From an uncultured Actinomycetes bacterium (lineage in GTDB: Bacteria; Actinomycetota; Thermoleophilia; RBG-16-64-13): 64,000 nt of DNA. Both the position numbers and the translations under genes were made by a program. The stretch covers positions 16,749-80,748 of the forward strand of contig CAMTXC010000005.1 of NCBI GenBank assembly GCA_947085635.1. Direction: 5' to 3'. This document shows, one piece after another, positions 10,751 through 46,618 of this stretch (position 1 is its first letter; every line of letters begins with the position of its first letter). Under the pieces are notes generated by a model. It was not told where the DNA came from, searched no databases, and worked only from the letters and a program-made list of their open reading frames with translations.

Positions 10751-10777
10751 CGCGGCGTTCTCCGAGGGGTGTGTGCG

Positions 10778-11242
10778 TCAGAACAGGTTGAGCCCTCGAG
10801 CCACGGCCTCGGAGAGACCCCACACGACCCCGAAAGCGATGGTCACCCCGATTGCCACGGCCGCGAAGGCCCTGTGCCACTCCATGCCCAACAGCCACGC
10901 CGCCGCCGTGCCCGAATAGGCTCCGGTGCCGGGTAGCGGTATCGCTACGAACAACGCCAATCCCAGCAGCCCGTACTTCGCCACGAGCGGGTGCGCCTTT
11001 GCGCGTGCCTTCTCGAGCTTGCGATGGAGCCAGCTGTTCTCGGGAATGTGGCGATACACCCACGAGAGGATGAAGTATGTGGGGAAGAAGACCAGGACGT
11101 TCGCGATCAGGATGAGGGGCAGGTAGGCGCGGTCCGCCTGCTGGATGGCCCAAGGGATGGCCCCCCGCAACTCTATCCACGGAACCATCGCGACCACCAC
11201 GTACTTCACGTAGGGCGGCAATCCCGCGAGCAGCTCGAGCAT
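10778..11242 (-). CDS. Small multidrug-export-like membrane protein (COG2426 type)
   Basis: Has the VAMVPWIELRGAIPWAI motif and four predicted TM helices. Confidence 0.6.
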   Translation of the reverse strand: MLELLAGLPPYVKYVVVAMVPWIELRGAIPWAIQQADRAYLPLILIANVLVFFPTYFILSWVYRHIPENSWLHRKLEKARAKAHPLVAKYGLLGLALFVAIPLPGTGAYSGTAAAWLLGMEWHRAFAAVAIGVTIAFGVVWGLSEAVARGLNLF

Positions 11243-15314: not shown

Positions 15315-15344
15315 TTGACCGACTTGGTCGCGCGCTGTTATGTT
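15315..15344 (+). promoter_or_regulatory. Candidate promoter of the ADH operon
   Basis: TTGACC (15315-15320), 18-nt spacer, TATGTT (15339-15344). Confidence 0.4.
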
Positions 15345-15401
15345 CCTTAGGCTGCTCGGCCGGCCGTCGCTCCCTTCCCGGAGGGGTCGCGGGTCGAGCT
15401 C

Positions 15402-15452
15402 GGAAGTGAGGACGCTTCCCGCTACGCGCGTTGGCGAGGGGCGTCCTTCTTG
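15402..15452 (+). terminator. Leader C: conserved hairpin overlapping an intrinsic-terminator-like stem (candidate ANTAR target)
   Basis: Hairpin GGAAG-U-GAGGAC-G-CUUCC at 15402-15419. Its 3' arm is also the 5' arm of the stem GGACGCTTC (15410-15418) / GGGGCGTCC (15438-15446), which is followed by TTCTTG. Confidence 0.45.
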
Positions 15453-15510: not shown

Positions 15511-16620
15511 ATGAAGATCAAGGCGGCAGTACTGAGGGAAGTGAACAAAGGCTACAGTTTCGAAGAGCTGGAACTGGCGCCCCCGCAGGCGGGGGAGGTG
15601 CTCGTCAAGTACGCGTACACCGGCTTCTGCCACAGCGATCTGAGTGTGGCCACAGGCCGCATCGGTATCGCCCTGCCCCTCGTGGCGGGCCACGAGGCCG
15701 CGGGCGTCGTCGAGGCGGTGGGCCCCGGCGTCACCCGTGTGAAGGTGGGCGACCACGTGGCCAGCACATGGATGATCCCCTGCGGCGACTGCCCCGAATG
15801 CCGTGGCGGTCTGGGGAACGTCTGCACCGGCAACTTCCCTCACTTCCTGGCGGGCACGCTGCTCGACGGCACCACCCGTCTCAGCGACGCCAAGGGCAAC
15901 CCCGTGCTCCACGGCAATTTCGTTTCCGGGTTCTCCGACTACACGGTGGTGCCGGAGACGGGCGTGGTCGCTATCCGAAAAGACATGCCTCTGGACTGGG
16001 CCGCCCTCATGAGTTGCTGTATCCCCACCGGCTGGGGCTCGGTGACGAACCTTGCCAACGTGCAGCCGGGCCACAAAGTGGCCATATGGGGCATGGGCGG
16101 CGTGGGCCTCAACGTCCTGCGGGCGGCCAAGATGCGCCAGGCGAACCCTATCATCGCGGTCGACCTCGAGGAGTCGAGGCGTGAGTTGGCGATGGAACTT
16201 GGGGCGACTCATTTCATCTGCAGCGCCAAAGACGACCCGGTCCCGATCATCCAGGACCTCACGGGCGGCGGCGTCGATATCGCCTTCGAAGCCATCGGAG
16301 ACGCCGGAGCGATCGTGCAGGCATGGTGGTCCCTCGCCATGGCCGGACGCCTCATGGTCATCGGCGTCATGCCCCAGGATCAGGTGGCCGACATGCCGCT
16401 GACCTTCATGCCGCTTCAGCAGAAATCGATCATCGGCGGGTTGTACGGGTCGATCTCCACCCATGACGACATCCCCAAGCTCTGCGACCTCGCGATGATG
16501 GGGGAGATGAAGCTCGACAGGATAATCGAGGGCAAGTTCAAGCTGGAGCAGCTCAACGACATCGCCGAGAAGATGGAGAAGCGTCAGCTGGGCGGCCGTT
16601 GGGTCTGCGAGTGGGACTGA
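15511..16620 (+). CDS. Zinc-dependent alcohol dehydrogenase (class III-like MDR)
   Basis: CHSD catalytic Zn site, GHEAAG, structural Zn CGDCPECRGGLGNVC, and GMGGVG Rossmann motif. Start at ATG 15511 after AGGAGGGGG; the track ORF starts upstream at 15340. Confidence 0.9.
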   Translation: MKIKAAVLREVNKGYSFEELELAPPQAGEVLVKYAYTGFCHSDLSVATGRIGIALPLVAGHEAAGVVEAVGPGVTRVKVGDHVASTWMIPCGDCPECRGGLGNVCTGNFPHFLAGTLLDGTTRLSDAKGNPVLHGNFVSGFSDYTVVPETGVVAIRKDMPLDWAALMSCCIPTGWGSVTNLANVQPGHKVAIWGMGGVGLNVLRAAKMRQANPIIAVDLEESRRELAMELGATHFICSAKDDPVPIIQDLTGGGVDIAFEAIGDAGAIVQAWWSLAMAGRLMVIGVMPQDQVADMPLTFMPLQQKSIIGGLYGSISTHDDIPKLCDLAMMGEMKLDRIIEGKFKLEQLNDIAEKMEKRQLGGRWVCEWD

Positions 16621-16686: not shown

Positions 16687-17679
16687 ATGAGCCTACGGGT
16701 CTGCATCATCGGAGGCGGCGGCACGGTAGGGTCGGCCGCCGCCTTCCGGTTGGCGGCGCTCGGCCTGGCGGAAGAGGTCGTGCTGCTCGACGCGCGACCG
16801 CACATGGCCCAGAGCCATGCCTTGGACCTCGATCAGGCAGCGAGCGTCATGGCGGGCTCCGTGGTGCGGGCGGGCACGTGGGACGACCTGGCCGGTGCAG
16901 GGATTGTGATCCTCTGTGCGGGACTTCCGGAGCGCAACGTCGCGTCTCGTGATGAGTACCTCGCGGGGAACCTTTCTATCGTTCGTGAGGCGGCCGCGCA
17001 TCTGGCCGCCCTCTGTCCGGAAGCGGTCGTGATCGTGGCCACCAATCCGGTCGATGTCTTCACCGCCGCGCTCGCCAGACTGACGGGCATGGACGACCGG
17101 CGCTTCCTGGGGTACTCCTGGAACGACACACTCCGGCTTCGTTGGGCGGTCGCACGGGTCCTGGGTGAGCCCGCGCGTGACGTGGAGGCCCTCGTGATCG
17201 GAGAGCATGGAGAGATGCAGGTGCCGCTGTACGACCGCATCGCGGTGCGGGGAAGGCCCGTCCTTCTGACGGCGGAGCAGGAGCGAGAGGCGGACTCGTC
17301 CATCCGGAGCTGGTTCGCCACCTACCAGGGGCTGAACAGCGGCAGAACGTCCGGCTGGACCTCGGCCGTGGGCATCGCCACGGTCGTCGGAGCGATCGTC
17401 GGAGGAGGTTCGGAGATACTCCCCGGCTCGGCGGTCCTGCACGGCGAATACGGAGTCACCGGCGTGAGCCTGGGCGTACCCGTTCGTTTGGGGTCTCGGG
17501 GCGTGGAAGAGGTGGTCGAGCTTCCCTTGACTCCGGCCCAATCGAGCGCGTTCCGGGCCGCCGCAGGCAAGGTCGGGAGCCTTCTGGACGGGGTCATGGG
17601 CTCGGGCGACCGCGCCGACCAGGGCGACCGCGCCGACCGCGGCGATGTGCGGGACGCTGTCCGCAAGGGAAGGGAGTAG
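16687..17679 (+). CDS. L-lactate/malate dehydrogenase family oxidoreductase
   Basis: CIIGGGGTVGSAAAF Rossmann motif, VATNPVD and IGEHGE motifs. Confidence 0.9.
   Translation: MSLRVCIIGGGGTVGSAAAFRLAALGLAEEVVLLDARPHMAQSHALDLDQAASVMAGSVVRAGTWDDLAGAGIVILCAGLPERNVASRDEYLAGNLSIVREAAAHLAALCPEAVVIVATNPVDVFTAALARLTGMDDRRFLGYSWNDTLRLRWAVARVLGEPARDVEALVIGEHGEMQVPLYDRIAVRGRPVLLTAEQEREADSSIRSWFATYQGLNSGRTSGWTSAVGIATVVGAIVGGGSEILPGSAVLHGEYGVTGVSLGVPVRLGSRGVEEVVELPLTPAQSSAFRAAAGKVGSLLDGVMGSGDRADQGDRADRGDVRDAVRKGRE
17605..17646 (+). repeat. In-frame 18-nt tandem duplication in the C-terminal tail of the LDH/MDH-like gene
   Basis: GGCGACCGCGCCGACCAG, GGCGACCGCGCCGACCGC, then GGCGAT. Encodes GDRADQ-GDRADR-GD. 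Confidence 0.8.
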
Positions 17680-17683
17680 GCGC

Positions 17684-18631
17684 ATGCGCATCGTGGTTCT
17701 CGGAGCCGGGGCGATGGGGTGCCTCTTCGGCGGCCTGCTGCACCGGGCCGGGCGCGATGTCACGCTGATCGACGTGTCCGCCCGGCAGATCGCGGCCATC
17801 AATGAAGCGGGCCTCCACTTGGAACGGGACGGCGAGGTGCTCATCATCCCCGTAAGGGCCGCCTACGCGGCCCATGTCGGCGTCGCTCCCGAGCTCGTCG
17901 TCCTCTTCACCAAGACTATCCACTCGGAGGCCGCTCTAGAGTCGATCCGAAGCCTGATCGATGACGACACCGTCCTCCTGTCGCTCCAGAACGGGCTCGG
18001 CAACGAGGAGGTCATGGCCCGTTTCGTGCCGCGCGACCGCATCGTGCAAGGAGTCACCACGTTCCCGGCCGACCTCGTGGCGCCCGGGCACGTGCGTTCC
18101 TTGGGCTCGGGTCACTCCCAGATCATGGGTCTTGACGGCCTGGTCACCCTGCGACTGGAGCTCATCCGCGACGTCTTGGACGACGCCGGTCTCGAGTGTG
18201 AGATCTCGCCGGAGGTCACCACCGCCATCTGGGAGAAGGCTGCCTTCAACTGCGCGCTCAACGCGCTGACGGCGGTCACGGGACTCCGAATCGGCCCCAT
18301 CGCTGATTCCCCGGAGGCAACAGACTTGGCCCGCCGCGTCGCGGAGGAAGTGGTCGACGTGGCCAACCGCAAGGGCATCGGTGCGCGCAAGGAGGTCGTA
18401 CTGGCCACGATTGCGGGAGCACTGGCGGAGCATAGGGAGCACCAGCCCTCCATGCTCCAGGACGTGCTCGCCGGACGCCGCACCGAAGTCGGTTCGCTGA
18501 ACGGAGCCGTGGTGCGCGAGGCGGCGGCCCTCGGCCTCAGCGTCCCGTTCACGGAGGCCTTGTACCTTCTCGTCCGCACGCTGGAGTCGACCATCCCAGG
18601 GTATTCCGGGGCGCACGCCGACCGTTCGTGA
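17684..18631 (+). CDS. 2-dehydropantoate 2-reductase (ApbA/PanE) family protein
   Basis: MRIVVLGAGAMGCLFGGLL N-terminus and a typical C-terminal ApbA_C region (NGAVVREAAALG). Confidence 0.85.
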   Translation: MRIVVLGAGAMGCLFGGLLHRAGRDVTLIDVSARQIAAINEAGLHLERDGEVLIIPVRAAYAAHVGVAPELVVLFTKTIHSEAALESIRSLIDDDTVLLSLQNGLGNEEVMARFVPRDRIVQGVTTFPADLVAPGHVRSLGSGHSQIMGLDGLVTLRLELIRDVLDDAGLECEISPEVTTAIWEKAAFNCALNALTAVTGLRIGPIADSPEATDLARRVAEEVVDVANRKGIGARKEVVLATIAGALAEHREHQPSMLQDVLAGRRTEVGSLNGAVVREAAALGLSVPFTEALYLLVRTLESTIPGYSGAHADRS

Positions 18632-18643
18632 GGGGGCGGACTC

Positions 18644-18672
18644 TTGACTTCCATGGTGCCTCCTGCTAGGTT
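18644..18672 (+). promoter_or_regulatory. Candidate promoter of the VOC-to-methyltransferase operon
   Basis: TTGACT (18644-18649), 17-nt spacer, TAGGTT (18667-18672). Confidence 0.4.
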
Positions 18673-18677
18673 GCGCC

Positions 18678-18706
18678 CAGACGTTCTGTGCACGCAGACG
18701 TCTGAC
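18678..18706. promoter_or_regulatory. Tandem palindromic operator-like sites at the predicted transcription start
   Basis: CAGACGTTCTG at 18678-18688 (one extra T) and a perfect 10-bp palindrome CAGACGTCTG at 18695-18704, extended by GAC. Confidence 0.45.
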
Positions 18707-18734
18707 TTTGGTGGCCGGAGAATGGGCCGTGGGT

Positions 18735-18795
18735 GGGGGGTAATGGCGCTTCCCGATGCGAGTTTCGCATTGTGGGAAGGGCCATTTTTTGTTTT
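18735..18795 (+). terminator. Leader A: conserved hairpin overlapping an intrinsic terminator (candidate ANTAR target)
   Basis: Hairpin GGGGGG-U-AAUGGC-G-CUUCCC at 18735-18754. Terminator stem TGGCGCTTCCC (18744-18754) / GGGAAGGGCCA (18774-18784), 10 of 11 bp, followed by TTTTTTGTTTT. Confidence 0.5.
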
Positions 18796-18941: not shown

Positions 18942-19415
18942 GTGATGGACGGAGTGGATACTTCGGTATACGGGGCCCAGCCTCACCACGTTGGAGTAGT
19001 GGTGCGCGATATCGAGGCGGCAATCGCCCAGTTCGAGACCATGGGATTCGGTCCGTTCAAGTTCAGTGACGAGGCCCGTACCTTCACCATCGACTTCACC
19101 GGGGAGTTGCACGGCGAGCCCGCCGAGTGGAGCGTCACCATCAGCAACGCCAAGATGGGCGACGTGGAGCTCGAGCTGCTGCAGCCGAGCGGCGGCCCGT
19201 CGGCCCTACAGGAGAGCCTGGACGCAGACGGCGAAGGCCTCCATCACATCGGCTTCATCACCGAAGATATCCGTCGAGACATCGCCGAGCAGACCGCGCG
19301 AGGGGCTGCGATCTGGACCCAGTCACTACGCACCGACGCGCCGAGCTTCGTCTACTTCGAGCCGAGCGCCATTGGTGGCGTGGCCATCGAGCTGCGAACC
19401 GCGGGGGCCGACTGA
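18942..19415 (+). CDS. VOC (glyoxalase/dioxygenase) family protein
   Basis: Two beta-alpha-beta-beta-beta modules with HHVGVVVRDIEAAI and LHHIGFITEDI. Confidence 0.8.
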   Translation: MMDGVDTSVYGAQPHHVGVVVRDIEAAIAQFETMGFGPFKFSDEARTFTIDFTGELHGEPAEWSVTISNAKMGDVELELLQPSGGPSALQESLDADGEGLHHIGFITEDIRRDIAEQTARGAAIWTQSLRTDAPSFVYFEPSAIGGVAIELRTAGAD

Positions 19416-20443
19416 TGAAGGCCGCCGTCCAGTATGGTCCGCATGACGTGAGAGTTGAAGATGTCGCCGAACCGCGGTGCGGTCCCGGTCAGATCAAGGT
19501 GAAGATCGACTACTGCGGGGTCTGCGGCACCGATCTCGAGATCTACGAAGGCCGCTTCGGTCTCATGTATACGGAGGGGTGGCCCAAGGGCCCCAAGATC
19601 GAAGGGCACGAAGCCGCGGGCGCCATCGTCGAGGTAGGCTCGGGGACACGCCAGGGCTACGAAGTAGGGCAGAGGGTGGCCATGAACTTCCGCTCCTCAT
19701 GCGGGGCCTGCTACTACTGCCGCGACGGGCGGGAGCACTTCTGCGACCACGTGACCATGTCGGGCGGCTCCTTCGCCGAGTACGCCCTCTACGAGGAGAG
19801 CGCCGTCCATCCCCTGCCCGACGACGTGAGTACACGGAAGGGTGCGCTCCTCGAGCCGCTCACCGTGGCCATGCACGTCACCGATCAGGCTGCGATCAGG
19901 CCGGGGGCGACCGTGGCGGTCTCAGGGGCGGGCACCATCGGCCTGCTCTCGGTGATGCTCGCGGTGCGGTCCGGGGCCTCGACCGTGCTGGTCTCGGAGC
20001 CGGTGGCCTCGAAACGTCGGCTCGCTGAGAGCCTGGGAGCAACGGTGACGGTGGATCCCCTGAACGAGGACGTCGTCGCCGTCGGCCGGAGTGCGACTGA
20101 GGGGAGAGGCTTCGACTCCGTCATAGAGATCAGTGGGAACCTCGGGGCCGCACAGACCGCCCTCAAGCTGGTGGACAAGTGCGGCACCCTCGTGTGGGCG
20201 GGCGTGTATCCCCACGAGGAGTCCATCCCTGTGCGTCCGTTCGATCTCTACGCGGGCGAACTGACGATCCGCTCGGCTATGGTGTCCCCGTACCTGTTCC
20301 CCCGCTCCGTGAATCTGCTGTCCCGGCTCGACGTCGAGCCTCTGATCTCGGCAACCTACCCGCTCGAGCGCATCGTGGACGCGTTCGAGAACCACCGGAG
20401 TGGGGATGCCATCAAGACACTCATCCAGCCGGGGAGCGCCTGA
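19415..20443 (+). CDS. Zinc-dependent dehydrogenase (sorbitol/threonine dehydrogenase-like MDR)
   Basis: CGVCGTDLE, GHEAAG, structural Zn CGACYYCRDGREHFC, and GAGTIG. ATGA overlap with the VOC gene. Confidence 0.9.
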   Translation: MKAAVQYGPHDVRVEDVAEPRCGPGQIKVKIDYCGVCGTDLEIYEGRFGLMYTEGWPKGPKIEGHEAAGAIVEVGSGTRQGYEVGQRVAMNFRSSCGACYYCRDGREHFCDHVTMSGGSFAEYALYEESAVHPLPDDVSTRKGALLEPLTVAMHVTDQAAIRPGATVAVSGAGTIGLLSVMLAVRSGASTVLVSEPVASKRRLAESLGATVTVDPLNEDVVAVGRSATEGRGFDSVIEISGNLGAAQTALKLVDKCGTLVWAGVYPHEESIPVRPFDLYAGELTIRSAMVSPYLFPRSVNLLSRLDVEPLISATYPLERIVDAFENHRSGDAIKTLIQPGSA

Positions 20444-20482: not shown

Positions 20483-20686
20483 GTGACTGAGACCATCAAC
20501 TGTGGGCACTGCCAGATGCTCCTCTATTTCGGCGAGGAGTTGAAGCGGCGCCTGTACTTGCGGGCGATCCCGTCGGAGGAGACGGTGCTCGGGTTCTACG
20601 GCGACGCCTGTCCCCGATGCGGGGGCGACCTGTCCATGGAGACGGTCGAGGTGGGCATCGAGGGGAGGGCCACGCATGGCTCATAA
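20483..20686 (+). CDS. Small zinc-ribbon protein
   Basis: CGHC ... CPRCGG pair. GTG start preceded by AGGAGG. Wedged between the ADH and the transketolase. Confidence 0.55.
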   Translation: MTETINCGHCQMLLYFGEELKRRLYLRAIPSEETVLGFYGDACPRCGGDLSMETVEVGIEGRATHGS

Positions 20687-21578
20687 CGACGCTCTCGTAG
20701 CCGAGCTTGAGGCCAAGTCGAACAAGCTGCGGAATCACTGCTTCACCCAGTTCTGCACTTTCGAGCAGGGGCACGCCGGCGGCACCATGTCCATCGTGGA
20801 CGTGGTCACCGCCTTGTATCTGCACCACATCAAGTTCGACCCGAAGGACCCCGATTGGCCCGAGCGTGACCGCGTGGTCATGTCGAAGGCCCACTGCTGC
20901 GAGGCCATCTACGCCGCGCTCGTGGAGTTGGGGGTCTATCCCGAGGAGACGCTGGGCACGTACTACTGCTACGGCTCGCCGTTCCAGGGTCACGCCGACC
21001 GCTGGTCAACCGCGGGCATCGACTACTCGGGCGGCTCCCTCGGGCAAGGGCTCTCCTTCGCGGCCGGTATGGCCTACGCCGAGAAACTCAAGATGATCTT
21101 GAGGCCGCCCAGCGCGGAGGAGACCTTCCTCCCGCGTTACATCAAGCGATTCGATCCGGCCTACCGCTCCTACTGCATCCTCGGCGACGGCGAACTCCAC
21201 GAGGGCCAGGTGTGGGAGGCGGCGATGTTCGCCCACAAGTACAAGCTGGACAACCTCATCGCCATCGTCGACTACAACAAGTGGAGCCTCGACGGCCCCA
21301 CCAACGAAGTCATGCCCGTGGAGCCGCTGCTGGAGAAGTGGAAGGCCTTCGGTTGGTGGGTCACCGAGATCGACGGGCACGACATGGGGCAGATCCTCGA
21401 TGCGCTTGATCTCAGCAACCGCATGTACGGCGATAACCGGCCGAAGTGCATCATCGCCCACACGGTCAAGGGTTACGGGGTGTCGCACTGGGAGAGCCGG
21501 CGCATGCACCTGGGTCGCGGCGAAGAGATGATGAAGGGCGTGCGGGAAGGACGGGAGAAGTATGGCGACGTACGGTAG
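20676..21578 (+). CDS. Transketolase, N-terminal (TPP-binding) subunit
   Basis: GHAGG, ILGDGELHEGQVWEA and NLIAIVDYN motifs of split transketolases. Confidence 0.95.
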   Translation: MAHNDALVAELEAKSNKLRNHCFTQFCTFEQGHAGGTMSIVDVVTALYLHHIKFDPKDPDWPERDRVVMSKAHCCEAIYAALVELGVYPEETLGTYYCYGSPFQGHADRWSTAGIDYSGGSLGQGLSFAAGMAYAEKLKMILRPPSAEETFLPRYIKRFDPAYRSYCILGDGELHEGQVWEAAMFAHKYKLDNLIAIVDYNKWSLDGPTNEVMPVEPLLEKWKAFGWWVTEIDGHDMGQILDALDLSNRMYGDNRPKCIIAHTVKGYGVSHWESRRMHLGRGEEMMKGVREGREKYGDVR

Positions 21579-22554
21579 GCACATCCAGATCGGCGAGCCC
21601 ACCCTCCCCGCCAAGGGCATCGAGAAGGCGCTCAAGGCCGGGGCGCTCAAGGACCCCCGCATCATCGCGGTACTCGAGGACATGGGCTTCCCCGGCATCG
21701 ATTGGTGGACCGAGAACATGCCCGAGCGCATGGTGGAGGTGGGCATCGCCGAGCAGAATGGGGCGGTGGTGGCGGGAGCCCTGGCGGCGGAAGGCTTCGT
21801 CCCCGTCATCTACAGCTTCCTGTTCGCGAACGTTGGGCGCGCTCTGAACCAGGTGCGCCAGAGCATCCTCGTCGACCGCTTCAACGTGAAGTTCATCGGC
21901 CGGGAGGGCGCCTGGGGCGAGGTGGGCATCTCGCACAACACAGTCGAAGGAGTCGGTTTCAGCCGGGTGCTCCCTAATCTCGTGATCATGAACCCGTCGG
22001 ATGTAGTAGAGGCCGAGAAGGCCACCGAAGCTATGCTCCAGTACCACGGGCCGGTGCTGCTGCGGCAGGAGTCAAGCCCGACGCCGGTGCGGGTGTTCAC
22101 CGACGACTACCCCTTCAACATCGGCAAGGCCTACTGGGTCAAGGAAGGTGCAGACGCCACCATCATCGCCACCGGCTACATGTTGACCGAGGCCATCGCA
22201 GCGATCGACCTTCTCGAAGCCGAGGGACTCGACGTGGGCATCCTGAACATGTGTACTCTCAAGCCCCTCGACGTCGGCGCCATCGTGCAGGCCGCGGAGC
22301 GGTCGGGGGCGATCGTCACCGCCGAGAACGCCAGCATCATCGGCGGCCTGGGAGAGGGCGTGGCGGCGGTGCTCGCCGAGAACCTGCCCGCGCCCATGGT
22401 GCGGGTGGGCATAGAGGACGAGTTCAGCCAGTCGGGGCTCATCACTCCCGAGCGGGACGATCTCAAGATACACTTCGGTCTGCGGGCCGAGGACCTGGTG
22501 GTGTCGGTGAAGGAGTGCATCGCCAAGAAGGAGAGACTGCGGTGCCGCGACTAG
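21562..22554 (+). CDS. Transketolase, C-terminal (pyrimidine-binding) subunit
   Basis: VGIAEQN motif and C-terminal TK domain. Overlaps the N-terminal subunit gene. Confidence 0.95.
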   Translation: MATYGRHIQIGEPTLPAKGIEKALKAGALKDPRIIAVLEDMGFPGIDWWTENMPERMVEVGIAEQNGAVVAGALAAEGFVPVIYSFLFANVGRALNQVRQSILVDRFNVKFIGREGAWGEVGISHNTVEGVGFSRVLPNLVIMNPSDVVEAEKATEAMLQYHGPVLLRQESSPTPVRVFTDDYPFNIGKAYWVKEGADATIIATGYMLTEAIAAIDLLEAEGLDVGILNMCTLKPLDVGAIVQAAERSGAIVTAENASIIGGLGEGVAAVLAENLPAPMVRVGIEDEFSQSGLITPERDDLKIHFGLRAEDLVVSVKECIAKKERLRCRD

Positions 22555-39994: not shown

Positions 39995-40711
39995 CTACTC
40001 CTTCGACTCGAGACGAACCTGGGCCATCCGGTTCTCCATATTCTGCAGATGTCGGGCCATCCCTTGGGCCGCTCCCGCTGGGTCGCGCCCGGCGATGCGG
40101 TCGCATATCTCCTCGTGATCCTCGAGAATCTCCTTCAGGGCGCCCTCCTGAGCGATGAGCTCGTTGGTCTCCTTTTTTAGAGCGATGCGCACGGAGGTGA
40201 TGATGCTGAAGTACACCTCGTTCTTGGAGGCTTCCGCTATGTGCAGGTGGAAGACCACGTCCTCCTCGATGAAGCGGGCGGGTTTGTCGACCACGCTCCG
40301 CATCCGTTCCAGGTCCTCCTTCAGCGTCGCTATCTCCCCTTCCTCGGCGCGGACGGAGGCCAGTTCGGCGGTTCTTACCTCGATGAGCTTCCGCGCCTCC
40401 ATCAGCTGCGCCCACCCGGTAGTGGCCGTCCCGAAAGGCGTGGTGGCGGCGAACGAATCGGCAGGGTCGGGCGGCTTTACGAAGGTGCCGCCGTTGTAGC
40501 CCCGCTTCACGTACAGGAAGCCGGTGAGCTCGAGTACCTTCAACGCCTCCCGGATGGCGGAGCGCCCCACGTTGAATTGCCTTGCGAGGTCGGTCTCACT
40601 GGGCAGCTTCTGTCCCGGCTCCAGGTTGCCCAGGAGGATCTCACGCTGGATGCTGCGGGCCACCTTCTCGAAGAAGCGCTCGTTCTTGAGCGGCTTGAAC
40701 ATCTTGGCCAT
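39995..40711 (-). CDS. GntR-family transcriptional regulator (FadR/FCD subfamily)
   Basis: LPSETDLARQFNVGRSAIREALKVLE wHTH and an all-helical FCD-like C-terminal domain. Confidence 0.9.
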   Translation of the reverse strand: MAKMFKPLKNERFFEKVARSIQREILLGNLEPGQKLPSETDLARQFNVGRSAIREALKVLELTGFLYVKRGYNGGTFVKPPDPADSFAATTPFGTATTGWAQLMEARKLIEVRTAELASVRAEEGEIATLKEDLERMRSVVDKPARFIEEDVVFHLHIAEASKNEVYFSIITSVRIALKKETNELIAQEGALKEILEDHEEICDRIAGRDPAGAAQGMARHLQNMENRMAQVRLESKE

Positions 40712-40805
40712 CGGCTGTCACCTGCGCCTTTCGCGCGGTCGCGAGCGTTGCGTTGGACCCCTCACACGTCGCACGGGGTCGCTGCTGCTCTCCCTCCGAG
40801 AGTCG

Positions 40806-40835
40806 TTGACAGTGACCGCCCAGTCCGCACATTAT
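40806..40835 (+). promoter_or_regulatory. Candidate promoter of the kinase / ANTAR regulator operon
   Basis: TTGACA (40806-40811), 18-nt spacer, CATTAT (40830-40835). Confidence 0.35.
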
Positions 40836-40843
40836 CCTATCGT

Positions 40844-40853
40844 CAGACGTCAG
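40844..40853. promoter_or_regulatory. Operator-like site CAGACGTCAG in the GntR / kinase divergent region
   Basis: GTCAGACGTCAGAT, 9 of 10 match to CAGACGTCTG. Sits at the predicted +1 of the plus-strand promoter. Confidence 0.4.
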
Positions 40854-40914
40854 ATTCAGTCAACGTGGCACCGCGCGTGGTTCTGGGGGCGGCGACTGCC
40901 TGGACGCGGAGGTC

Positions 40915-43128
40915 GTGTGGTATTCGGAGGCGGTAGGGTTGACACTCGAGGGTCCCACGGCCGACGCCGTCACCGGGTGCCAGGGCGCAACCCGCGATCG
41001 TGTTCCCAGGTTGACACACGAGGTAGTCGCCGCTTATCATCCCTGTTGTCAGACGTTAGACTCCGTCGTGCTGGCCGTGGTGGAGTCAGACCTCCTGTTC
41101 GGCGTGGGAGTGGCGCATGGGTTCAGGCCTACGAAGCGGCGCGCGGTGGTCACCCGGGTGGAAGGCCACGTGGTGCACGAGATCGACGACCGTCCCGCGG
41201 CCGACGCCTGCGCGGATCTCATGGGTGTGGATGCTATCGGCGTCTATGACCAGACCGCCCAGTTCTCGCGGACCCCCTTCGGCGCCGCCGACGTGTACGG
41301 CGAGCACCACCTCCTCGTACTCGAGCGCGCCCTCGGCGACGGTTCGGTGCAGTTCGCGCCGAACATGGAGGGGATGCAGGCCATCACCGTGATGGAGACG
41401 GATCCGGAGAAACAGGCGACGGCGGCCCGGGAGGCCGTCGCCAAGGCGATCGACATCGGTCATGTGCAGGATCCGGCGGCCGTGTTCCTGTTCGTTTGCT
41501 CCATACTGTTCAGTGGGGACGCTCACGGGCCGCTGATGAACGAGCGGTCCCTGGAGCGGGTCGCGGGAGACGCCACGGTCGCCGGCTTCCACACGTTCGG
41601 AGAGTACGGTCTGAGCGACGAAGGCCTGCCCATCTACTGCAACCAATCGGTCGTCGCTCTCGTCATCGGCGACAAACTCGATCGCCTGGCGGCGGCCACG
41701 CGTCGCAACGCGAACGCGCTCAAGGAGATCGAAACCGAGTTGGAAGGCCGGACTAGGGAGCTGGCGGCCGTGAGAGCGGCGAACTCGATCGTGCTCGACA
41801 GTGAGAACTGGCCGAATTCGCTCGGTCGATACGAACGCATCATCAGCGATCTGACGGGCGCGCGGCACGCACGCTTCCAAGTGGATGTCGTTGGAGCGGC
41901 CGGAGCGGAGCTGACTGTCCCGCCCCGCCCGCTGCATGTGAACCAAGCGATCTTGCCGCTCACCAGCATGGGTCGGTCTCTGGGGTTCCTGGAGCTCGAC
42001 GGTGAGAAGGGGCTGCTCAGCTTGGAGGTGGCCGGCAGCATCTGCGACCTCGTGGCCCGCGCCGTTCACCGGCTTGTGATGGAGCGCACCATCGAAGAGC
42101 AGGCGCGGGAGATAGAGACGGTGAACGTGATCGCCCGCGAGATCGTGAACGCGGACAACAACCGCTCGGCGCTCATCAACATCGCCAGAGTGATCGAAGA
42201 GCATCAGGGGGCGCGCGGGTTCTCCTTGTGGTTGAATGGCGATGCACCCGAGCTCCTAGGGTGGGATGGTCCGTCGGAGGATCTCGAGGTCGAGTGTGCC
42301 CTTGTATCTCGTGTGCTCGAGTCGCGAACCATCGAGCGGAGCATGAGCGGGGGCATCGTTCGGATCGTCTCTCCCCTTCTCCTCAAAGACCGGGCCAACG
42401 GCGCGCTCGTGCTGAGGTTCGCGGCCGACAGCGTCCCGCTGGGTCTGGCCTTCCTCAACTACCTCTCCATGCCGCTGGCGGTCATGGCCGAGATGTACGT
42501 GAGGTACCGCGAGTCGAACGTGGCCCGGGAGATGCACCATCGGGTGAAGAACAACCTGCAGATCATCGCCAGCCTGCTGAATCTGCAATTGCGCCGCCTG
42601 CAGGATCCATCGGCCAAGGAAGCTCTCGAGAGCAGCATCCGGCGCATCATGAGCATCGCCGTCGTACACGAGGTTCTGTCGGAACGGTACACCGGGCTCG
42701 TCGATCCGGTGTCCATCGTACAGAACGTATCCGATTCCGTGCTGCGTGCGATGTCGGGCCCGAACCAGGCGATCTCGGTGTCGGTGAAGGGTCAACCGGG
42801 TCTGACGTTGAACTCGCAGCAGGCGACGAGCGTGGCGGTGGTTGTGAACGAGCTTCTTGGGAACGCCCTCAAGCACGGATTTCGGGAACGTGCGGAGGGT
42901 CGGATCTCGGTCGATCTCGGTCAGGAGAACGGGTCGTTCACGCTCGTCGTGAGGGACGATGGCGACGGCCCTCCCGAGGGATTCGATCTCTCGCGCGACC
43001 AGGGTCTTGGGCTGCAACTCATCGGGACGATCGTGGCGGGCGAGCTTCGCGGGGACTTCACGGTGGGCGGGGGAGGGTCGGGGATGGAGGCCAGCGTCAC
43101 CTTCCCGCGTGATCCGGTGCATGGATAG
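40915..43128 (+). CDS. Sensor histidine kinase: partial FIST domain, GAF-like region, HisKA_2, HATPase
   Basis: FIST_C-like GFHTFGEYG, a coiled linker, HHRVKNNLQIIASLLNLQ (HisKA_2) and NELLGNALKHGF...GLGLQLI. The N-terminal FIST part looks short and the start is uncertain. Confidence 0.8.
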   Translation: MWYSEAVGLTLEGPTADAVTGCQGATRDRVPRLTHEVVAAYHPCCQTLDSVVLAVVESDLLFGVGVAHGFRPTKRRAVVTRVEGHVVHEIDDRPAADACADLMGVDAIGVYDQTAQFSRTPFGAADVYGEHHLLVLERALGDGSVQFAPNMEGMQAITVMETDPEKQATAAREAVAKAIDIGHVQDPAAVFLFVCSILFSGDAHGPLMNERSLERVAGDATVAGFHTFGEYGLSDEGLPIYCNQSVVALVIGDKLDRLAAATRRNANALKEIETELEGRTRELAAVRAANSIVLDSENWPNSLGRYERIISDLTGARHARFQVDVVGAAGAELTVPPRPLHVNQAILPLTSMGRSLGFLELDGEKGLLSLEVAGSICDLVARAVHRLVMERTIEEQAREIETVNVIAREIVNADNNRSALINIARVIEEHQGARGFSLWLNGDAPELLGWDGPSEDLEVECALVSRVLESRTIERSMSGGIVRIVSPLLLKDRANGALVLRFAADSVPLGLAFLNYLSMPLAVMAEMYVRYRESNVAREMHHRVKNNLQIIASLLNLQLRRLQDPSAKEALESSIRRIMSIAVVHEVLSERYTGLVDPVSIVQNVSDSVLRAMSGPNQAISVSVKGQPGLTLNSQQATSVAVVVNELLGNALKHGFRERAEGRISVDLGQENGSFTLVVRDDGDGPPEGFDLSRDQGLGLQLIGTIVAGELRGDFTVGGGGSGMEASVTFPRDPVHG
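41050..41061. promoter_or_regulatory. Operator-like site CAGACGTTAGAC inside the annotated 5' end of the kinase ORF
   Basis: GTCAGACGTTAGAC has the same one-T-insertion variant as 18678-18688. Confidence 0.3.
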
Positions 43129-43756
43129 CGGGAGAGGCCGGGTGGAGGGGCTGCGAATACTGATAGTCGACGACGAGTCCATCATCCGCATGGATCTGCG
43201 GGAGATGCTCACCGAGATGGGACACGACGTCGTGGGTGAAGCCGATGACGGAGATAAGGCCGTGAGTCTGGCCCGGAGCCTCGATCCCGATCTCATGTTC
43301 CTTGACATCAAGATGCCGCGGATGGACGGTCTCGAGGCGCTCCGCCTGATGAACCGTGAAGACGCGCGGCCCGTGGTCGTGCTGACGGCGTTCAGTGAGC
43401 GGTCGGTGATCGAACAGGCTGTCGAGCTCGGGGCGAGGGCGTATCTGGTGAAGCCCTTCGAGTCGGCCAACCTGCTGCCCGCCATACATCTGGCGATGGC
43501 TCACTCCTCGGAGCTGCGCGCTCTGCGCGACGAGAACGAGTCGCTCAAGGAGGCGATACGCGCGAGCAGGCTGGTGAATCGCGCGAAAGCCCTCCTCGCG
43601 GAGCAGGAGGGGATCAACGAGCACGAAGCATTCAGGCGGATCCAGAAACTCAGCATGGACAAGAACAGGAAGATGGCGGACATCGCTGAGGCGATCATCA
43701 CGCTTTTTGCCAAGGACCGGGCGGCGCAGGGGGCCGGAGCCACTCGGACTTCTTGA
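43121..43756 (+). CDS. Response regulator with ANTAR RNA-binding output domain
   Basis: Receiver domain (ILIVDDE...DLMFLDIKMPRMDG) plus ANTAR helices (RLVNRAKALLAEQEGINEHEAFRRIQKLSMDKNRKMADIAEAI). Overlaps the kinase stop. Confidence 0.9.
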   Translation: MDSGRGRVEGLRILIVDDESIIRMDLREMLTEMGHDVVGEADDGDKAVSLARSLDPDLMFLDIKMPRMDGLEALRLMNREDARPVVVLTAFSERSVIEQAVELGARAYLVKPFESANLLPAIHLAMAHSSELRALRDENESLKEAIRASRLVNRAKALLAEQEGINEHEAFRRIQKLSMDKNRKMADIAEAIITLFAKDRAAQGAGATRTS

Positions 43757-43781
43757 CACTCCCCAGAGCGAGTTGTATCTT
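43753..43781 (+). promoter_or_regulatory. Candidate promoter of the AOR operon
   Basis: TTGACA (43753-43758), 17-nt spacer, TATCTT (43776-43781). Confidence 0.4.
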
Positions 43782-43832
43782 CTGACTGTGGTCCTGGCTG
43801 ACGGCAGCGAGTCGTGCAACTGGGGTCAGTGT

Positions 43833-43886
43833 GGAAGTGATGGCGCTTCCCGGCGCGGTGATGGGTCCGTGTGGGGGGCGCTTTTT
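43833..43886 (+). terminator. Leader B: conserved hairpin overlapping an intrinsic terminator (candidate ANTAR target)
   Basis: Hairpin GGAAG-U-GAUGGC-G-CUUCC at 43833-43850. Terminator stem GCGCTTCCC (43843-43851) / GGGGGGCGC (43873-43881), 9 bp including 2 G-U pairs, followed by TTTTT. Confidence 0.5.
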
Positions 43887-43942
43887 GTGTTGGTCGGGGC
43901 TGCGTGGCGGCGCTCGGCAAGGGTACCGGCGGAAGGAGTGGC

Positions 43943-45817
43943 ATGTTGCAGGGGGGTTACACGGGGAAGATCCTGCGGGTCGATCTCTCCCAAAGGGAGG
44001 CACGCACCGAAGAGGTCTCTGTCGAGCTCGCCAAGAACTACATCGGCGGCGCGGGGTTCGGGATCAAGACGCTTTATGACGAAGTGCCGGCCGGAACGGA
44101 TGCACTGGGACCGGACAACAAGCTCATCTTCGCCTGCGGGCCGCTGTCGGGGAGCGACACCCCCTGCGCCAGCCGGATGGCTGTGACCTCGAAGAGCCCC
44201 TTGACGGGGGCGGTGGGCATGGCTCTCACCGGAGGCTTCTTCCCCGCGGAGCTGAAGTTCGCCGGGTATGACGCGCTGATCGTGGAGGGCACGGCGGAAG
44301 CGCCCACGTACGTCACCATCGATGGTGACACCGTCCAGTTCCGTGACGCGCAGGGATTGTGGGGCACGAATACTTCCGACTGCCAGCAGATGATCAAGGA
44401 TGCCCTGAAGGACCAGGGGTACAGGATCGCCTGTATCGGCCCGGCCGGCGAGAACCTGAGCCGCCTCGCGTGCATCATCAACGAGCGCCGAGCTGCGGGA
44501 CGCAAGGGCCTGGGAGCCGTGATGGGCTCCAAGAACTTGAAGGCCATCGCGGTGCGGGGGCATGGCGAGGTGGCGGTCGCCGATCCGGAAGCCTACAAGG
44601 CCGCACGCTCCTCGTTTCGCGAGCACATGCGGGAGAGCCCTGTTCTCTACTCTCAGTTCGCGAAGCTTGGCACGCCCATGGTGGTAGATGTGGTGGGCGC
44701 CATGGGGATGCTCGCCGCCAAGAACTGGCGGGCCACCGGCGAGTTCCTCCCGGTGGACGAGCTGGGCATGGAGGCCGGGAAGGCCGTCACCGTCGGCCGG
44801 AACCCGTGCCAGGGGTGTCCGGTGGCGTGTAGTCAGCTGAAGCTGGCGCGCAGCGCCCCGTACGCCGGCATCATGGCGGAGGGCCCCGAGTTCGAAAGCA
44901 TCTACTCCCTGGGCACGCAATGCGGAGTGGACAACATGGACGCCGTCATCGCCGCGGATCGCCTGTGCGACGAACTCGGCTTGGATACGATGTCGGCGGG
45001 TGTCACGGTCGGCTTCGCGATGGAGCTCTACGAGCGGGGCGCTCTCTCCGCCGTGGACAGCGGCGACCTCGATCTCTCCTTCGGTAACGACCGCGCGATG
45101 ATCGCGCTCCTCGAGAAGATGGCGTACCGGGAAGGCATCGGCGACCTGCTGGCTGATGGAGTCAAAGAGGCGGCCGACCGTATCGGCGGCGACGCGTCCC
45201 GCTACGCGATGCACGTGAAGGGCCTCGAGCTGCCCGCGTACGACGTGCGGGGAGCGAAAGCGCACGGGTTGAACTACGCCACTTCATATACCGGAGCCGA
45301 TCACAATCGCGGATACGCATTCCAGGAGATATTCGGTATCCCCATCCCCAAAGAGGTGGATCGCTTCGCCGTGGAGGGCAAGGGCGAGCTCTGCAAGTGG
45401 AACCAGGACATCCGGACCGCCACGTGCGACTGTCCCACGATGTGCGCCTTCCTGCTCGACATGGCCGTCCCGGCAATCGCCGCCGAGAACGCTGCGGCTC
45501 TGCTGACCTCGCTCACCGGCGTCGCTTTTACCGCCGAAGAGGTGTTCCAGGTGGGCGAGCGCGTCAACAACCTTGCGCGGGCTTTTAGCGTCCGTGAGGG
45601 CTTCTCGCGCAAAGATGACACACTCCCCGATCGCGTCATGAACGAGCCGCTCGCCGCCGGCGGGTCCAAGGGGCACCACATCCCCCAGGAAGATCTCGAT
45701 CTCATGCTCGACGAGTACTACACTGCCAGGGGTTGGGACGTGGCAACAGGTACGCCCACCCGGCAGAAGCTCGAAGAGCTCGGTCTGGCTTCGGTCGCCG
45801 ACGACCTGGGCCTGTAG
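43943..45817 (+). CDS. Aldehyde:ferredoxin oxidoreductase (tungsto/molybdopterin AOR family)
   Basis: GGYTGKILRVDLS... N-terminal domain, GPDNKLIFACGPLSG, and the full-length AOR C-terminal domains. ATG 43943 after GGAAGGAG. Confidence 0.9.
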   Translation: MLQGGYTGKILRVDLSQREARTEEVSVELAKNYIGGAGFGIKTLYDEVPAGTDALGPDNKLIFACGPLSGSDTPCASRMAVTSKSPLTGAVGMALTGGFFPAELKFAGYDALIVEGTAEAPTYVTIDGDTVQFRDAQGLWGTNTSDCQQMIKDALKDQGYRIACIGPAGENLSRLACIINERRAAGRKGLGAVMGSKNLKAIAVRGHGEVAVADPEAYKAARSSFREHMRESPVLYSQFAKLGTPMVVDVVGAMGMLAAKNWRATGEFLPVDELGMEAGKAVTVGRNPCQGCPVACSQLKLARSAPYAGIMAEGPEFESIYSLGTQCGVDNMDAVIAADRLCDELGLDTMSAGVTVGFAMELYERGALSAVDSGDLDLSFGNDRAMIALLEKMAYREGIGDLLADGVKEAADRIGGDASRYAMHVKGLELPAYDVRGAKAHGLNYATSYTGADHNRGYAFQEIFGIPIPKEVDRFAVEGKGELCKWNQDIRTATCDCPTMCAFLLDMAVPAIAAENAAALLTSLTGVAFTAEEVFQVGERVNNLARAFSVREGFSRKDDTLPDRVMNEPLAAGGSKGHHIPQEDLDLMLDEYYTARGWDVATGTPTRQKLEELGLASVADDLGL

Positions 45818-45834: not shown

Positions 45835-46125
45835 GTGATCCGGGTCACGGCTCGCACCGCCCTCCACCTCGCGACGCTCCTCCGAAGTCGTGAGGTGGAG
45901 TTGGAGGTGCCCGCGGGCGCTTCCGTCATGGATGTCCTAGTCCGGTTGGCCGATCGGATGGGGGAGCAGTCCGTTCCGGCGCTTCTCGAGCCGCAGAGTG
46001 GGAGACCGCAGCGTCATCTGAGAATAATGCTGAACGGGCGGGATATTGGGATCCTCGGTGGGCTCGACGCCGTTGTCAAGGAGGGTGACGACGTCTTGGT
46101 CATACCGCCCGCCGGGGGAGGCTGA
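45835..46125 (+). CDS. MoaD/ThiS-family ubiquitin-like protein
   Basis: About 96 aa ending ...DVLVIPPAGGG*. The C-terminal Gly-Gly and position after AOR fit the family. GTG start. Confidence 0.75.
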   Translation: MIRVTARTALHLATLLRSREVELEVPAGASVMDVLVRLADRMGEQSVPALLEPQSGRPQRHLRIMLNGRDIGILGGLDAVVKEGDDVLVIPPAGGG

Positions 46126-46138
46126 GAGAGGAGCTGTC

Positions 46139-46618
46139 ATGAAGACCGTCGCCGCCGTCGTACACGAGCAGGGTGGGCCGTTCTTGCTCGAAGAGGTGTC
46201 CCTGGATGAGCCCCGCGCGGACGAGGTGCTCGTTCGCATGGTGGCTACCGGCCTCTGCCACACCGATCTCTCGGTTCGAGCCGGCTATATCCCGTTCCCG
46301 CTTCCGGGCGTGATGGGGCACGAGGGTGCAGGAATTGTCGAGGCGGTCGGTTCCGCGGTGAAGCGCGTCGCCCCCGGCGATCGCGTGCTGGCCACCTTCA
46401 CCTCATGCGGGCATTGCGCCAACTGCACGGGTGGCGAGCCTGCCTACTGCCACACGTTCATACCGTCGAATCTCGTCGGTGGCACGCGCTCTGACGGCAG
46501 CTACACCAAACTGCCGCTCGAGCGCATGATCCGCTGTTACCCGTTCGAAGACATCGAGCTGGCCGCCGCCGACGCCGCTGCGGGCGCGACCATCAAGCCG
46601 GTCTTGGTATTCGACTGA
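46139..46618 (+). pseudogene. Zinc-ADH derivative lacking the Rossmann domain (in-frame internal deletion)
   Basis: Intact N-terminal catalytic domain (CHTDL, GHEGAG, CGHCANCTGGEPAYC) runs directly into a typical ADH C-terminal tail (YPFEDIELAAADAAAGATIKPVLVFD). It is 159 aa, against about 370 aa expected. Confidence 0.6.

Follow-up and report, generated by a model that had tools for sequence, protein, structure and literature searches.

A conserved hexaloop hairpin overlapping an intrinsic terminator is a candidate ANTAR antitermination site in front of alcohol and aldehyde oxidoreductase operons of an uncultured Actinomycetota bacterium

The window, i.e., the whole 64,000-nucleotide stretch of DNA that was analysed, contains on its plus strand a sensor histidine kinase gene (40915-43128), a REC-ANTAR response regulator gene (43121-43756), an aldehyde:ferredoxin oxidoreductase (AOR) gene (43943-45817), a gene for a ThiS/MoaD-like small protein (45835-46125), and the remnant of a Zn-alcohol dehydrogenase (ADH) gene with an internal deletion (46139-46618). 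According to Pfam, the kinase is composed of a partial FIST_N, a FIST_C, a HisKA_2/HWE, and a HATPase domain. Its FIST_N matches profile positions 144-189 only, so the sensor is incomplete. In tblastn with the kinase of locus L169, residues 206-894 align to 41059-43125, and homology to the ~895-residue kinases of the relatives starts at 41059. The window kinase lacks about 205 N-terminal residues of the sensor domain, which is complete in the relatives, and signalling may therefore be impaired in this genome. The AOR is identified by AFOR_N (2.7e-78) and AFOR_C (2.3e-128), has the Shine-Dalgarno sequence GGAAGGAG at 43931-38, and is followed by the MoaD-like protein (Pfam ThiS, 6.7e-09). The ADH remnant retains ADH_N only, and just residues 1-123 and 329-367 of the 367-residue ADH of L161 align to it by tblastn. 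A GntR/FCD protein is also encoded nearby, at 39995-40711.

The regulator is PdtaR/EutV-like and contains full-length Response_reg (residues 13-122, 3.5e-30) and ANTAR (residues 140-193, 2.5e-19) domains. An N-terminal receiver domain with an acidic pocket, followed by a coiled coil and then the three-helix ANTAR domain at the C terminus, places it in this class. Its PDB matches are Rv1626 (1s8n, 6e-49) and EutV (6wsh/6ww6, 2e-37), and it can be aligned end to end to 1s8n and 6wsh. Among 32 homologues, D17/D18 are at least 90% conserved, while D62 and K111 are invariant. In our reading of the EutV alignment, the basic residues and the Met at the reported RNA-binding positions appear to be kept. 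The gene ends with TGA at 43754-43756, 77 nt upstream of the hairpin described below.

The leader between the regulator and AOR genes comprises a promoter, a variable 5' hairpin, a conserved hairpin, and a terminator. The sigma-70-like promoter (43753-43781) has TTGACA at 43753-43758, a 17-nt spacer, and TATCTT at 43776-43781; it overlaps the stop codon of the regulator gene, as read from the sequence, and is also found by a promoter scan (10/12; four sites against 0.8 expected in 8 kb). The 5' hairpin (43790-43827), recognized by folding and by an alignment gap, has a folding z of -0.46 versus a mean of -1.95 over 13 leaders. The conserved hairpin, GGAAG-U-[GAUGGC]-G-CUUCC (43833-43850), is a candidate ANTAR site by its sequence, its conservation, and the published P2 consensus. 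It consists of the arms GGAAG (43833-37) and CUUCC (43846-50), the closing pair U38·G45, and a terminal loop of six nucleotides, GAUGGC (43839-44), with G4 at 43842; the thermodynamic model allows G1-C6 pairing, which leaves a tetraloop. The intrinsic terminator (43843-43886), assigned from its fold and pair counts, has a lower stem of GCGCUUCCC (43843-51) and GGGGGGCGC (43873-81) with 9 bp, two of them G·U, an upper stem of GCGCGG (43853-58) and CCGUGU (43867-72), an apical loop UGAUGGGU, and a U5 tract (43882-86), making a 15-bp, two-tier, G+C-rich stem followed by U5. The earlier note on this DNA had read the end of the regulator gene, the promoter, the hairpin with G at loop position 4, and the overlapping terminator with its U tract from the letters, and each is found where it had placed them; the upper stem is an addition to that description.

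The terminator takes its 5' arm from the hairpin, reusing the final two bases of the loop, the closing G, and the hairpin 3' arm; bases 43843-43850 are common to both structures. Loop positions A2 and G4 are unpaired in the hairpin and in the terminator alike. The hairpin and the terminator are mutually exclusive, and termination is the predicted default. The segment 43830-43890 folds as the terminator at -27.8 kcal/mol with z = -3.5, and none of 200 shuffles is as stable. The AOR terminator is not reported by a simple terminator scanner because of its bulge and two-tier stem. A search for sequencing runs that contain this DNA turned up DNA metagenomes and no RNA-seq run.

Two further leaders of the same build are present on the plus strand of the window. 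The second leader (15315-15451) has the promoter TTGACC, 18-nt spacer, TATGTT (15315-15344), a variable 5' hairpin, the hairpin GGAAG-U-GAGGAC-G-CUUCC (15402-15419), and a terminator (15408-15448) with a weak, interrupted U tract, UUCUU. Downstream of it lie a Zn-ADH (15511-16620), an LDH/MDH-like protein (16687-17679), and an ApbA-like protein (17645-18631). The third leader (18644-18790) has the promoter TTGACT, 17-nt spacer, TAGGTT (18644-18672), 5' hairpins, the hairpin GGGGG-U-AAUGGC-G-CUUCC (18736-18753) with A at loop position 1, and a terminator (18742-18786; fold z -4.6) with a U6 tract. It precedes a glyoxalase-like protein (18942-19415), a Zn-ADH whose homology covers 19436-20425 by tblastn inside the ORF 19127-20443, and a split transketolase (20676-22554). 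With up to three mismatches allowed, the window contains three occurrences of the 18-nt motif where 0.36 would be expected, a number that none of 100 shuffles reaches. Both additional hairpins share their 3' parts with their terminators as in the AOR leader, and the terminator folds of the three leaders (-27.8, -24.7, and -28.5 kcal/mol) compare with -20.2, -19.3, and -17.1 kcal/mol when the hairpin is enforced.

The relatives keep kinase, regulator, leader, AOR, and MoaD in synteny, and each of the 16 close relatives with the FIST-kinase/ANTAR-regulator/AOR arrangement has the hairpin. In these 16 syntenic loci it is identical except at loop position 3, where all four bases occur. Around it the flanks and terminator loops diverge, and the -35 and -10 elements are kept in all relatives despite the diverged flanks. 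Across 12 distinct variants the stem is paired in every case, with the compensatory changes AGAAG/CUUCU and GAAAG/CUUUC in addition to G·U variants. No variant departs from G-CUU, the U·G closing pair, or the loop bases A2 and G4. Loop position 1 is G in the AOR leader and the 15402 leader, and A in the 18736 leader and at L175b, L178, and L182. In the terminator alignment 91% of cells are paired and four pairs show compensatory double changes; 3 of 500 shuffles are as good. Chance does not account for the hairpin.

R1, a covariance model of the hairpin, scores 50.1 bits at the 15402 leader and 54.1 bits at the 18736 leader. In more distant genomes it finds eight untrained copies with E values from 1e-8 to 1e-2 (L175 twice, L003, L178, L182 twice, and L183/L184), in which the hairpin likewise shares its bases with a terminator. 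All of them are sense-strand leaders within 5 kb of an orthologous FIST-kinase/ANTAR pair, and only the two distal leaders of the window lie farther than 5 kb from a regulator orthologue. Over 158 other ANTAR-regulator loci (1.2 Mb) R1 gives no credible match. In L179-L181, a tier with ~61% regulator identity, AOR adjoins the regulator on the opposite strand, and the motif is absent from the intergenic regions as read by eye.

ANTAR proteins antiterminate by means of paired small hexaloop hairpins, of which the second overlaps the terminator and in which G at loop position 4 is conserved. The published P2 consensus RRGY.AAHGDV.GCYY (PMC3369931, Fig. S2) is matched by AAGU-GAUGGC-GCUU at 13 of 14 positions. 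The P2 of E. faecalis eutG is GAAGC-AAAGAC-GCUUC, and G at loop position 1 is known from the Listeria eutA P2, with G1 loops such as GAUGAA published (PMC3369931). By itself the 14-nt P2-type consensus is not rare, with five matches in the window against 2.3 expected. One such match, at 9084, falls within an ORF. A generic RANGRN-loop hairpin scan of the window gives 35 matches, mostly in coding sequence, so this pattern alone is uninformative.

The earlier note had left the first hairpin, P1, unidentified, and the comparison of leaders gives the reason that no conserved P1 exists. In 16 leaders, every hexaloop hairpin with a stem of 3 bp or more was listed for the stretch from the promoter to the conserved hairpin, and no conserved P1 hexaloop is present there in any of them. 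Isolated P1-like candidates that are not conserved are gcu-GACGGC-agc in the window and ucg-CAAGAG-ugg in L003. The loci L001 and L002 have no 5' hairpin, and their conserved hairpin begins 7-8 nt after the -10 element. The scan with an ANTAR-target covariance model that the note had proposed was made with R2, built from 28 dual-hairpin matches of Fig. S2 (PMC3369931), and this Firmicutes/eut, A+U-rich model detects none of the three window leaders at E values up to 10. We also considered the conserved hairpin as P1 and the terminator apical hairpin (43853-72, with loop UGAUGGGU) as P2, and rejected this in general because the apical loop can be as short as 3 nt or as long as 14 nt, depending on the leader.

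A canonical two-site ANTAR target, whose second hairpin is either a degenerate 5' P1 or the terminator apical hairpin, is the strongest of the alternatives and an unlikely one. Both hairpins of the E. faecalis EutV targets are needed in vivo (PMC3369931), and 13 leaders do have a structured 5' hairpin, whose end is 2-5 nt short of the hexaloop hairpin and whose distance from the promoter is nearly constant. Its position is conserved, but its loops share neither length nor sequence, and the dual-hairpin model reaches only 3.5 bits as its best local score at the window leaders. As for the apical hairpin, GAUGR-type loops occur in three AOR leaders, including both that lack a 5' hairpin, with the look-alikes U-GAUGGG-U in the window, A-GAUGGA-G in L001, and A-GAUGAA-G in L002. 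In these three, the apical hairpin stands 2-3 nt past the conserved hairpin in the antiterminated fold, and its use as P2 there is a minor possibility, against which stands the same variation in apical loop length. On the structural side, one hexaloop is contacted per ANTAR dimer, and G4 is the sole base-specific contact (PMC8934654).

The leader could also be a regulated attenuator whose trans-acting reader is a metabolite, an sRNA, or some other RNA-binding protein; the ANTAR pair would then be a pathway neighbour. The match to the ANTAR consensus is after all a 14-nt pattern that is not rare alone, and Rfam holds nothing relevant to the whole window at gathering thresholds or to the leader at E values up to 10; a Moco/Tuco riboswitch, conceivable upstream of AOR/MoaD, is not found by that search. 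Nevertheless, the motif tracks the FIST-kinase/ANTAR pair across genomes while the genes beneath it differ: AOR, ADH, LDH-like, SDR, POR, and URO-D-family proteins and an ABC-transporter substrate-binding protein. Moreover, the invariant G4 and closing pairs are positions published as important to ANTAR recognition, the sole conserved part is too small for an aptamer, and no second RNA-binding regulator recurs in these loci. Another reader of the leader is accordingly improbable.

Still less probable is an unregulated 5'-UTR feature, either a leaky terminator or a stabilizing structure, that has been repeated as a duplicated promoter-leader cassette. The three window leaders do have promoter type, spacing, and stem sequence in common, and the whole-leader fold z-score is unremarkable on a window-wide scale. 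Against it, the flanks, the 5' hairpin, and the 3' arm and loop of the terminator have diverged, whereas the 18-nt hairpin keeps its invariants and its stem changes are only compensatory. The terminator 3' arms of the paralogous leaders have changed together with the hairpin (GAGGAC with GUCC, AAUGGC with GCCAU), so that pairing with the loop and the 3' arm is kept, and loop position 3 is free while A2 and G4 are never changed. Finally, an inverted repeat GGAAG-N8-CTTCC lying downstream of a promoter, with a GntR-family gene nearby, might suggest a DNA operator or roadblock, e.g., for the GntR/FCD protein, but this can practically be dismissed, because G·U pairs in the variants (GGGGG/CUUCC, GGGAG/CUUCC, GGAAG/CUUUC) break DNA symmetry, the invariant U·G closing pair would be a T/G mismatch, every copy lies on the sense strand and overlaps a terminator, and the relatives' loci have no GntR gene. 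The G·U pairs and the strict orientation argue for an RNA element and against a DNA one.

The preferred reading, to which we assign a probability of roughly 0.7, is that ANTAR-dependent antitermination through a single conserved hexaloop hairpin controls the AOR leader and an alcohol/aldehyde regulon. In this reading the AOR leader would be a transcription attenuator, transcribed from the promoter that overlaps the regulator stop codon. Its RNA would by default fold into the strong terminator, and transcription would stop about 60 nt before the AOR start codon. On a signal, the FIST-domain histidine kinase would phosphorylate the REC-ANTAR regulator, and the regulator dimer would bind the 18-nt hairpin, recognizing the hexaloop through G4 and A2 together with the invariant G-C and U·G closing pairs. 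The bound regulator would keep the hairpin from opening during transcription of the terminator 3' arm. Since the terminator 5' arm consists of hairpin bases (loop end, closing G, and 3' arm), the held hairpin would block the lower terminator stem, and RNA polymerase would continue into AOR-MoaD. We infer the binding partner, the phosphorylation dependence, and the sensed signal of this switch, and the scheme joins them to the observed elements, their conservation, mutual exclusivity, and energetics, and their genomic association. The earlier proposal that the FIST kinase/ANTAR pair controls readthrough into this operon by way of a competing hairpin gains support from the synteny, the conservation of the hairpin, and the covariation of the terminator, and further from the reuse of the module beside orthologous regulators and the 13/14 consensus match. 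As the same module precedes two other operons of the window, the regulator probably controls an alcohol/aldehyde/2-oxo-acid redox regulon with three or more leaders in the window.

Compared with the ANTAR dual-hexaloop antiterminators (EutV with eutP, eutG, eutS, and eutA of Enterococcus faecalis; NasR/nasF; AmiR/amiE; Ramesh et al. 2012, PMC3369931), the present leaders have the hexaloop hairpin with G4 in common. The stem and closing pair are P2-like (GGAAGU-GAUGGC-GCUUCC, next to the eutG hairpin given above), the 3' half of the hairpin doubles as the 5' arm of the terminator, the REC-ANTAR gene adjoins a histidine-kinase gene, and one genome has several leaders that would form one regulon. 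In contrast, instead of a conserved P1 there is a long hairpin of variable sequence at a distance of 2-5 nt or, in L001/L002, nothing at all. Moreover, U·G takes the place of C-G as the closing pair, and most copies have G at loop position 1. The genes concerned are alcohol, aldehyde, and oxo-acid oxidoreductases instead of genes of nitrogen metabolism, the sensor is a FIST-domain kinase, and the host belongs to a high-G+C uncultured Actinomycetota lineage. The actinobacterial ANTAR RNAs and PdtaR-type regulators (Mehta et al. 2021, PMC8164766) are also similar in that their hosts are high-G+C actinobacteria and Rv1626/PdtaR is the closest solved structure to the regulator. On the other hand, the published actinobacterial targets are dual stem-loops that lie mostly over ribosome-binding sites or start codons, with few on terminators (PMC8164766).

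From the EutV-RNA crystal structure the minimal ANTAR binding unit has been redefined as one hexaloop, and the same authors ask why two hairpins are needed for a dimer that contacts only one of them, and whether there are sites with a single hexaloop (Walshe et al. 2022, PMC8934654). The present leader family looks like such a site. Their expectation was that single hexaloops would be used mostly in settings where a transcribing polymerase imposes no kinetic limit, e.g., in EutX sequestration (PMC8934654), whereas the single hexaloop here competes with a terminator, where speed matters. The leaders may be natural co-transcriptional ANTAR antiterminators with a single sequence-specific hexaloop and no P1, wired to a FIST kinase and serving an alcohol/aldehyde/2-oxo-acid regulon in uncultured Actinomycetota; for this full combination, which stays tentative, we put the odds a little below even.

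The best reading of the leader, judged from comparative sequence evidence, is a known kind of switch, ANTAR antitermination, in a variant form in which the second conserved hairpin is missing. The hairpin is most likely the switch by which the neighbouring ANTAR regulator would turn on AOR and at least two other alcohol/aldehyde operons. Published ANTAR regulons are mostly nitrogen-related (PMC3369931), and our literature search found no paper linking ANTAR to FIST, AOR, or alcohol-dehydrogenase operons; ANTAR control of the present operons would be a carbon/redox regulon. If a single hexaloop does suffice, the rule from EutV that both hairpins are obligatory would not be general. The leaders provide natural test RNAs for this question, with the hairpin of L001/L002 placed at the very 5' end of the transcript. 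In addition, the motif with its overlapping terminator provides a model with which such leaders can be sought in genomes of high G+C content, for which models of Firmicutes targets fail.

To our knowledge, hardly any inputs or outputs have been assigned to FIST-domain kinases. If the switch works as proposed, the poorly understood FIST sensor domain would gain a concrete physiological output, and a defined regulon would narrow the search for the signal of the FIST kinase.

The leader of the aldehyde:ferredoxin oxidoreductase (AOR) gene lies directly 3' of the REC-ANTAR regulator gene, whose stop codon occupies 43754-43756. All the elements described in the earlier note (the regulator end, promoter, hairpin, overlapping terminator, and U tract) were recovered in place when the sequence was read out. 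The promoter comprises TTGACA (43753-43758), a 17-nt spacer, and TATCTT (43776-43781), and a consensus promoter scan agrees with it. The conserved hairpin pairs GGAAG (43833-43837) with CUUCC (43846-43850) and carries a U·G closing pair and the loop GAUGGC. The lower stem of the terminator is formed by GCGCUUCCC (43843-43851) with GGGGGGCGC (43873-43881) and is followed by U5 (43882-43886). An upper stem (43853-43858 with 43867-43872), absent from the earlier note, completes the terminator, and the full structure folds at -27.8 kcal/mol (z = -3.5). By Pfam, the flanking genes encode a FIST/HisKA_2/HATPase kinase, a REC+ANTAR regulator, AOR, and a ThiS/MoaD-like protein. An Rfam search of the window returned no match.

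The window has three copies of the 18-nt hairpin motif, where 0.36 are expected; they start at 15402, 18736, and 43833 (the AOR leader). Each copy has its own promoter 49-63 nt upstream, with TTGACx, a 17-18-nt spacer, and TAnnnT. In all three leaders the 5' arm of the terminator begins within the hexaloop and continues through the 3' arm of the hairpin, while the terminator 3' arms differ (GGGGGGCGC, GAGGGGCGUCC, and GGGAAGGGCCAU), each matching its own loop and arm. Folds in which the hairpin is enforced are 5-11 kcal/mol less stable than the terminator folds, so termination would be the default and some factor would have to keep the hairpin closed. The 15402 leader precedes Zn-ADH, LDH-like, and ApbA-like genes, and the 18736 leader precedes glyoxalase-like, Zn-ADH, and split transketolase genes. 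No copy beyond these three was found when the window was scanned with R1, a covariance model of the hairpin and terminator. The terminator of the 15402 leader ends in an interrupted U tract (UUCUU, 15447-15451), and pairing is possible between the terminator flanks and the hairpin 5' arm; this leader may attenuate less strongly than the other two, or be tuned differently. Another hexaloop hairpin with G4, gttcgt-GAGGGG-gcggac (18624-18641), extends across the ApbA-like stop codon, directly 5' of the -35 of the 18736 leader, and would be transcribed only upon readthrough from the upstream operon.

Many homologues of the regulator exist at 79-88% identity, and 16 loci were retrieved, all ordered kinase, regulator, AOR, MoaD. 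The -35, the -10, and the 18-nt hairpin are kept across these relatives, while the intervening and surrounding sequence diverges. The only variable site of the hairpin in the 16 relatives is loop position 3, where all four bases occur. One-sided as well as compensatory changes keep the terminator stems paired (91% of cells), with double changes in four pairs and an equally good result in 3 of 500 shuffles; the apical loop varies freely in length and sequence. The 12 distinct hairpin variants are 100% paired. Two of them carry compensatory stem changes (AGAAG/CUUCU and GAAAG/CUUUC), several have G·U substitutions, and the observed values were reached in only 8 of 500 shuffles. No variant departs from the G-C and U·G closing pairs, A2 and G4 of the loop, or the G-CUU that follows it. 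G·U pairing, strand bias, and terminator overlap all favour an element that acts as RNA over a DNA operator.

R1 matches copies on which it was not trained in genomes with a regulator of 64-67% identity (loci L003, L175, L178, L182, L183, and L184). These precede an LDH-like gene (L003), a glyoxalase/Zn-ADH operon and a Zn-ADH/SDR/POR operon (two copies in L175), a URO-D-family gene (L178), and, in L182-L184, an ABC-transporter substrate-binding protein gene and an SDR gene. Every such copy is a sense-strand leader at most 5 kb from an orthologous FIST-kinase/ANTAR pair. No credible match was found at 158 other ANTAR-regulator loci (mostly Chloroflexota, 1.2 Mb in total). L175, in a 3.56-Mb genome, also has, at 10714-10794, a weak and degenerate copy whose loop position 4 is A (GGAAG-U-AAGAAC-G-CUUCU; 12.7 bits) and, at 10957-10978, a partial one. 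Both lie just 3' of the regulator gene with no downstream gene on the same strand, and may be a decayed leader. In L179-L181, from a lower-G+C lineage (regulator ~61% identical), the FIST-kinase/ANTAR pair still adjoins an AOR gene in convergent orientation behind an SDR gene; the motif is in none of their intergenic regions. Since adjacency persists there without the motif, the regulator-AOR association may be older than the single-hexaloop design, or these loci may use another RNA.

The ANTAR target described by Ramesh et al. consists of two tandem hairpins, P1 and P2, whose hexaloops carry A1 and G4, with a 5-12-nt linker; both hairpins are required in vivo, and it matters which bases form the closing pairs (PMC3369931). 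The Fig. S2 consensus is SYAC.AAHGRH.GUDB for P1 and RRGY.AAHGDV.GCYY for P2 (PMC3369931). The AOR-leader hairpin (AAGU.GAUGGC.GCUU) agrees with the P2 consensus at 13 of 14 positions and closely resembles the Enterococcus faecalis eutG P2 (GAAGC-AAAGAC-GCUUC); its G at loop position 1 is shared with the Listeria eutA P2. P1 is missing. In most leaders the interval from promoter to hexaloop hairpin is occupied by a sequence-variable hairpin of ~45 nt, ending 2-5 nt before the hexaloop hairpin (mean z -1.95 over 13 leaders, only -0.46 in the AOR leader of the window). The relatives L001 and L002 lack this 5' hairpin, and their hexaloop hairpin starts 7-8 nt after the -10, leaving no space for P1. 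The ANTAR-target covariance scan proposed in the earlier note, run with a dual-hairpin model of 28 published matches, detected none of the three window leaders; forced onto the AOR leader, the model scored 3.5 bits, with its P2 on the conserved hairpin and P1 as a large insertion. Because P1 is missing and the model has no match at the three leaders, they fall outside the canonical dual-hexaloop family. The mechanistic analogy with ANTAR antitermination stands, and is consistent with a proposal, drawn from a crystal structure, of a single hexaloop as the minimal ANTAR site, G4 being the sole base-specific contact (PMC8934654). At its apex the AOR terminator has a loop (43859-43866, U-GAUGGG-U) that resembles the conserved U-GAUGGC-G, as do the apical loops of L001 (A-GAUGGA-G) and L002 (A-GAUGAA-G), while other relatives have unrelated loops. 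In some lineages this loop may be a second ANTAR contact beside the first hairpin in the antiterminated fold.

Full-length alignments of the regulator were obtained with Rv1626/PdtaR (6e-49) and EutV (2e-37). Judged from the latter alignment, the EutV positions reported to contact RNA, R142, K143, K147, and M172 (published numbering), would correspond to S149, R150, R154, and M179 here. All 32 homologues compared keep Ala-Lys 155-156 and M179.

The kinase ORF of the window matches relatives only from their residue 206, the homology starting at 41059, and thus ~205 N-terminal residues, most of FIST_N, are missing. A very good sigma-70-like site (TTGACA, 18-nt spacer, TATCAT; 11/12) lies at 41011-41040, within the nominal ORF and just upstream of the homology start. 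Relatives have an Fe-ADH gene upstream of the kinase; the window lacks it and has a divergent GntR/FCD regulator (39995-40711, minus strand) in its place, and the kinase 5' region (40712-41060) appears to have undergone a rearrangement by which the sensor was truncated. The Zn-ADH after MoaD (46139-46618) is a 159-aa remnant of the 367-aa enzyme of relatives, with residues 1-123 and 329-367 fused in frame and the entire Rossmann domain deleted. The RNA elements are intact, but this organism may have an altered sensory input.

Comparative evidence supports the proposal of the earlier note that the FIST-kinase/ANTAR pair would control terminator readthrough. The description that best fits the AOR leader is that of an ANTAR-type antiterminator in which one hexaloop is conserved, the predicted binding site of the regulator; no prior description of such a leader was found in the literature searched. 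At least three such leaders are best described as putative members of an alcohol/aldehyde regulon that a FIST-kinase/ANTAR two-component system would control in uncultured Actinomycetota.
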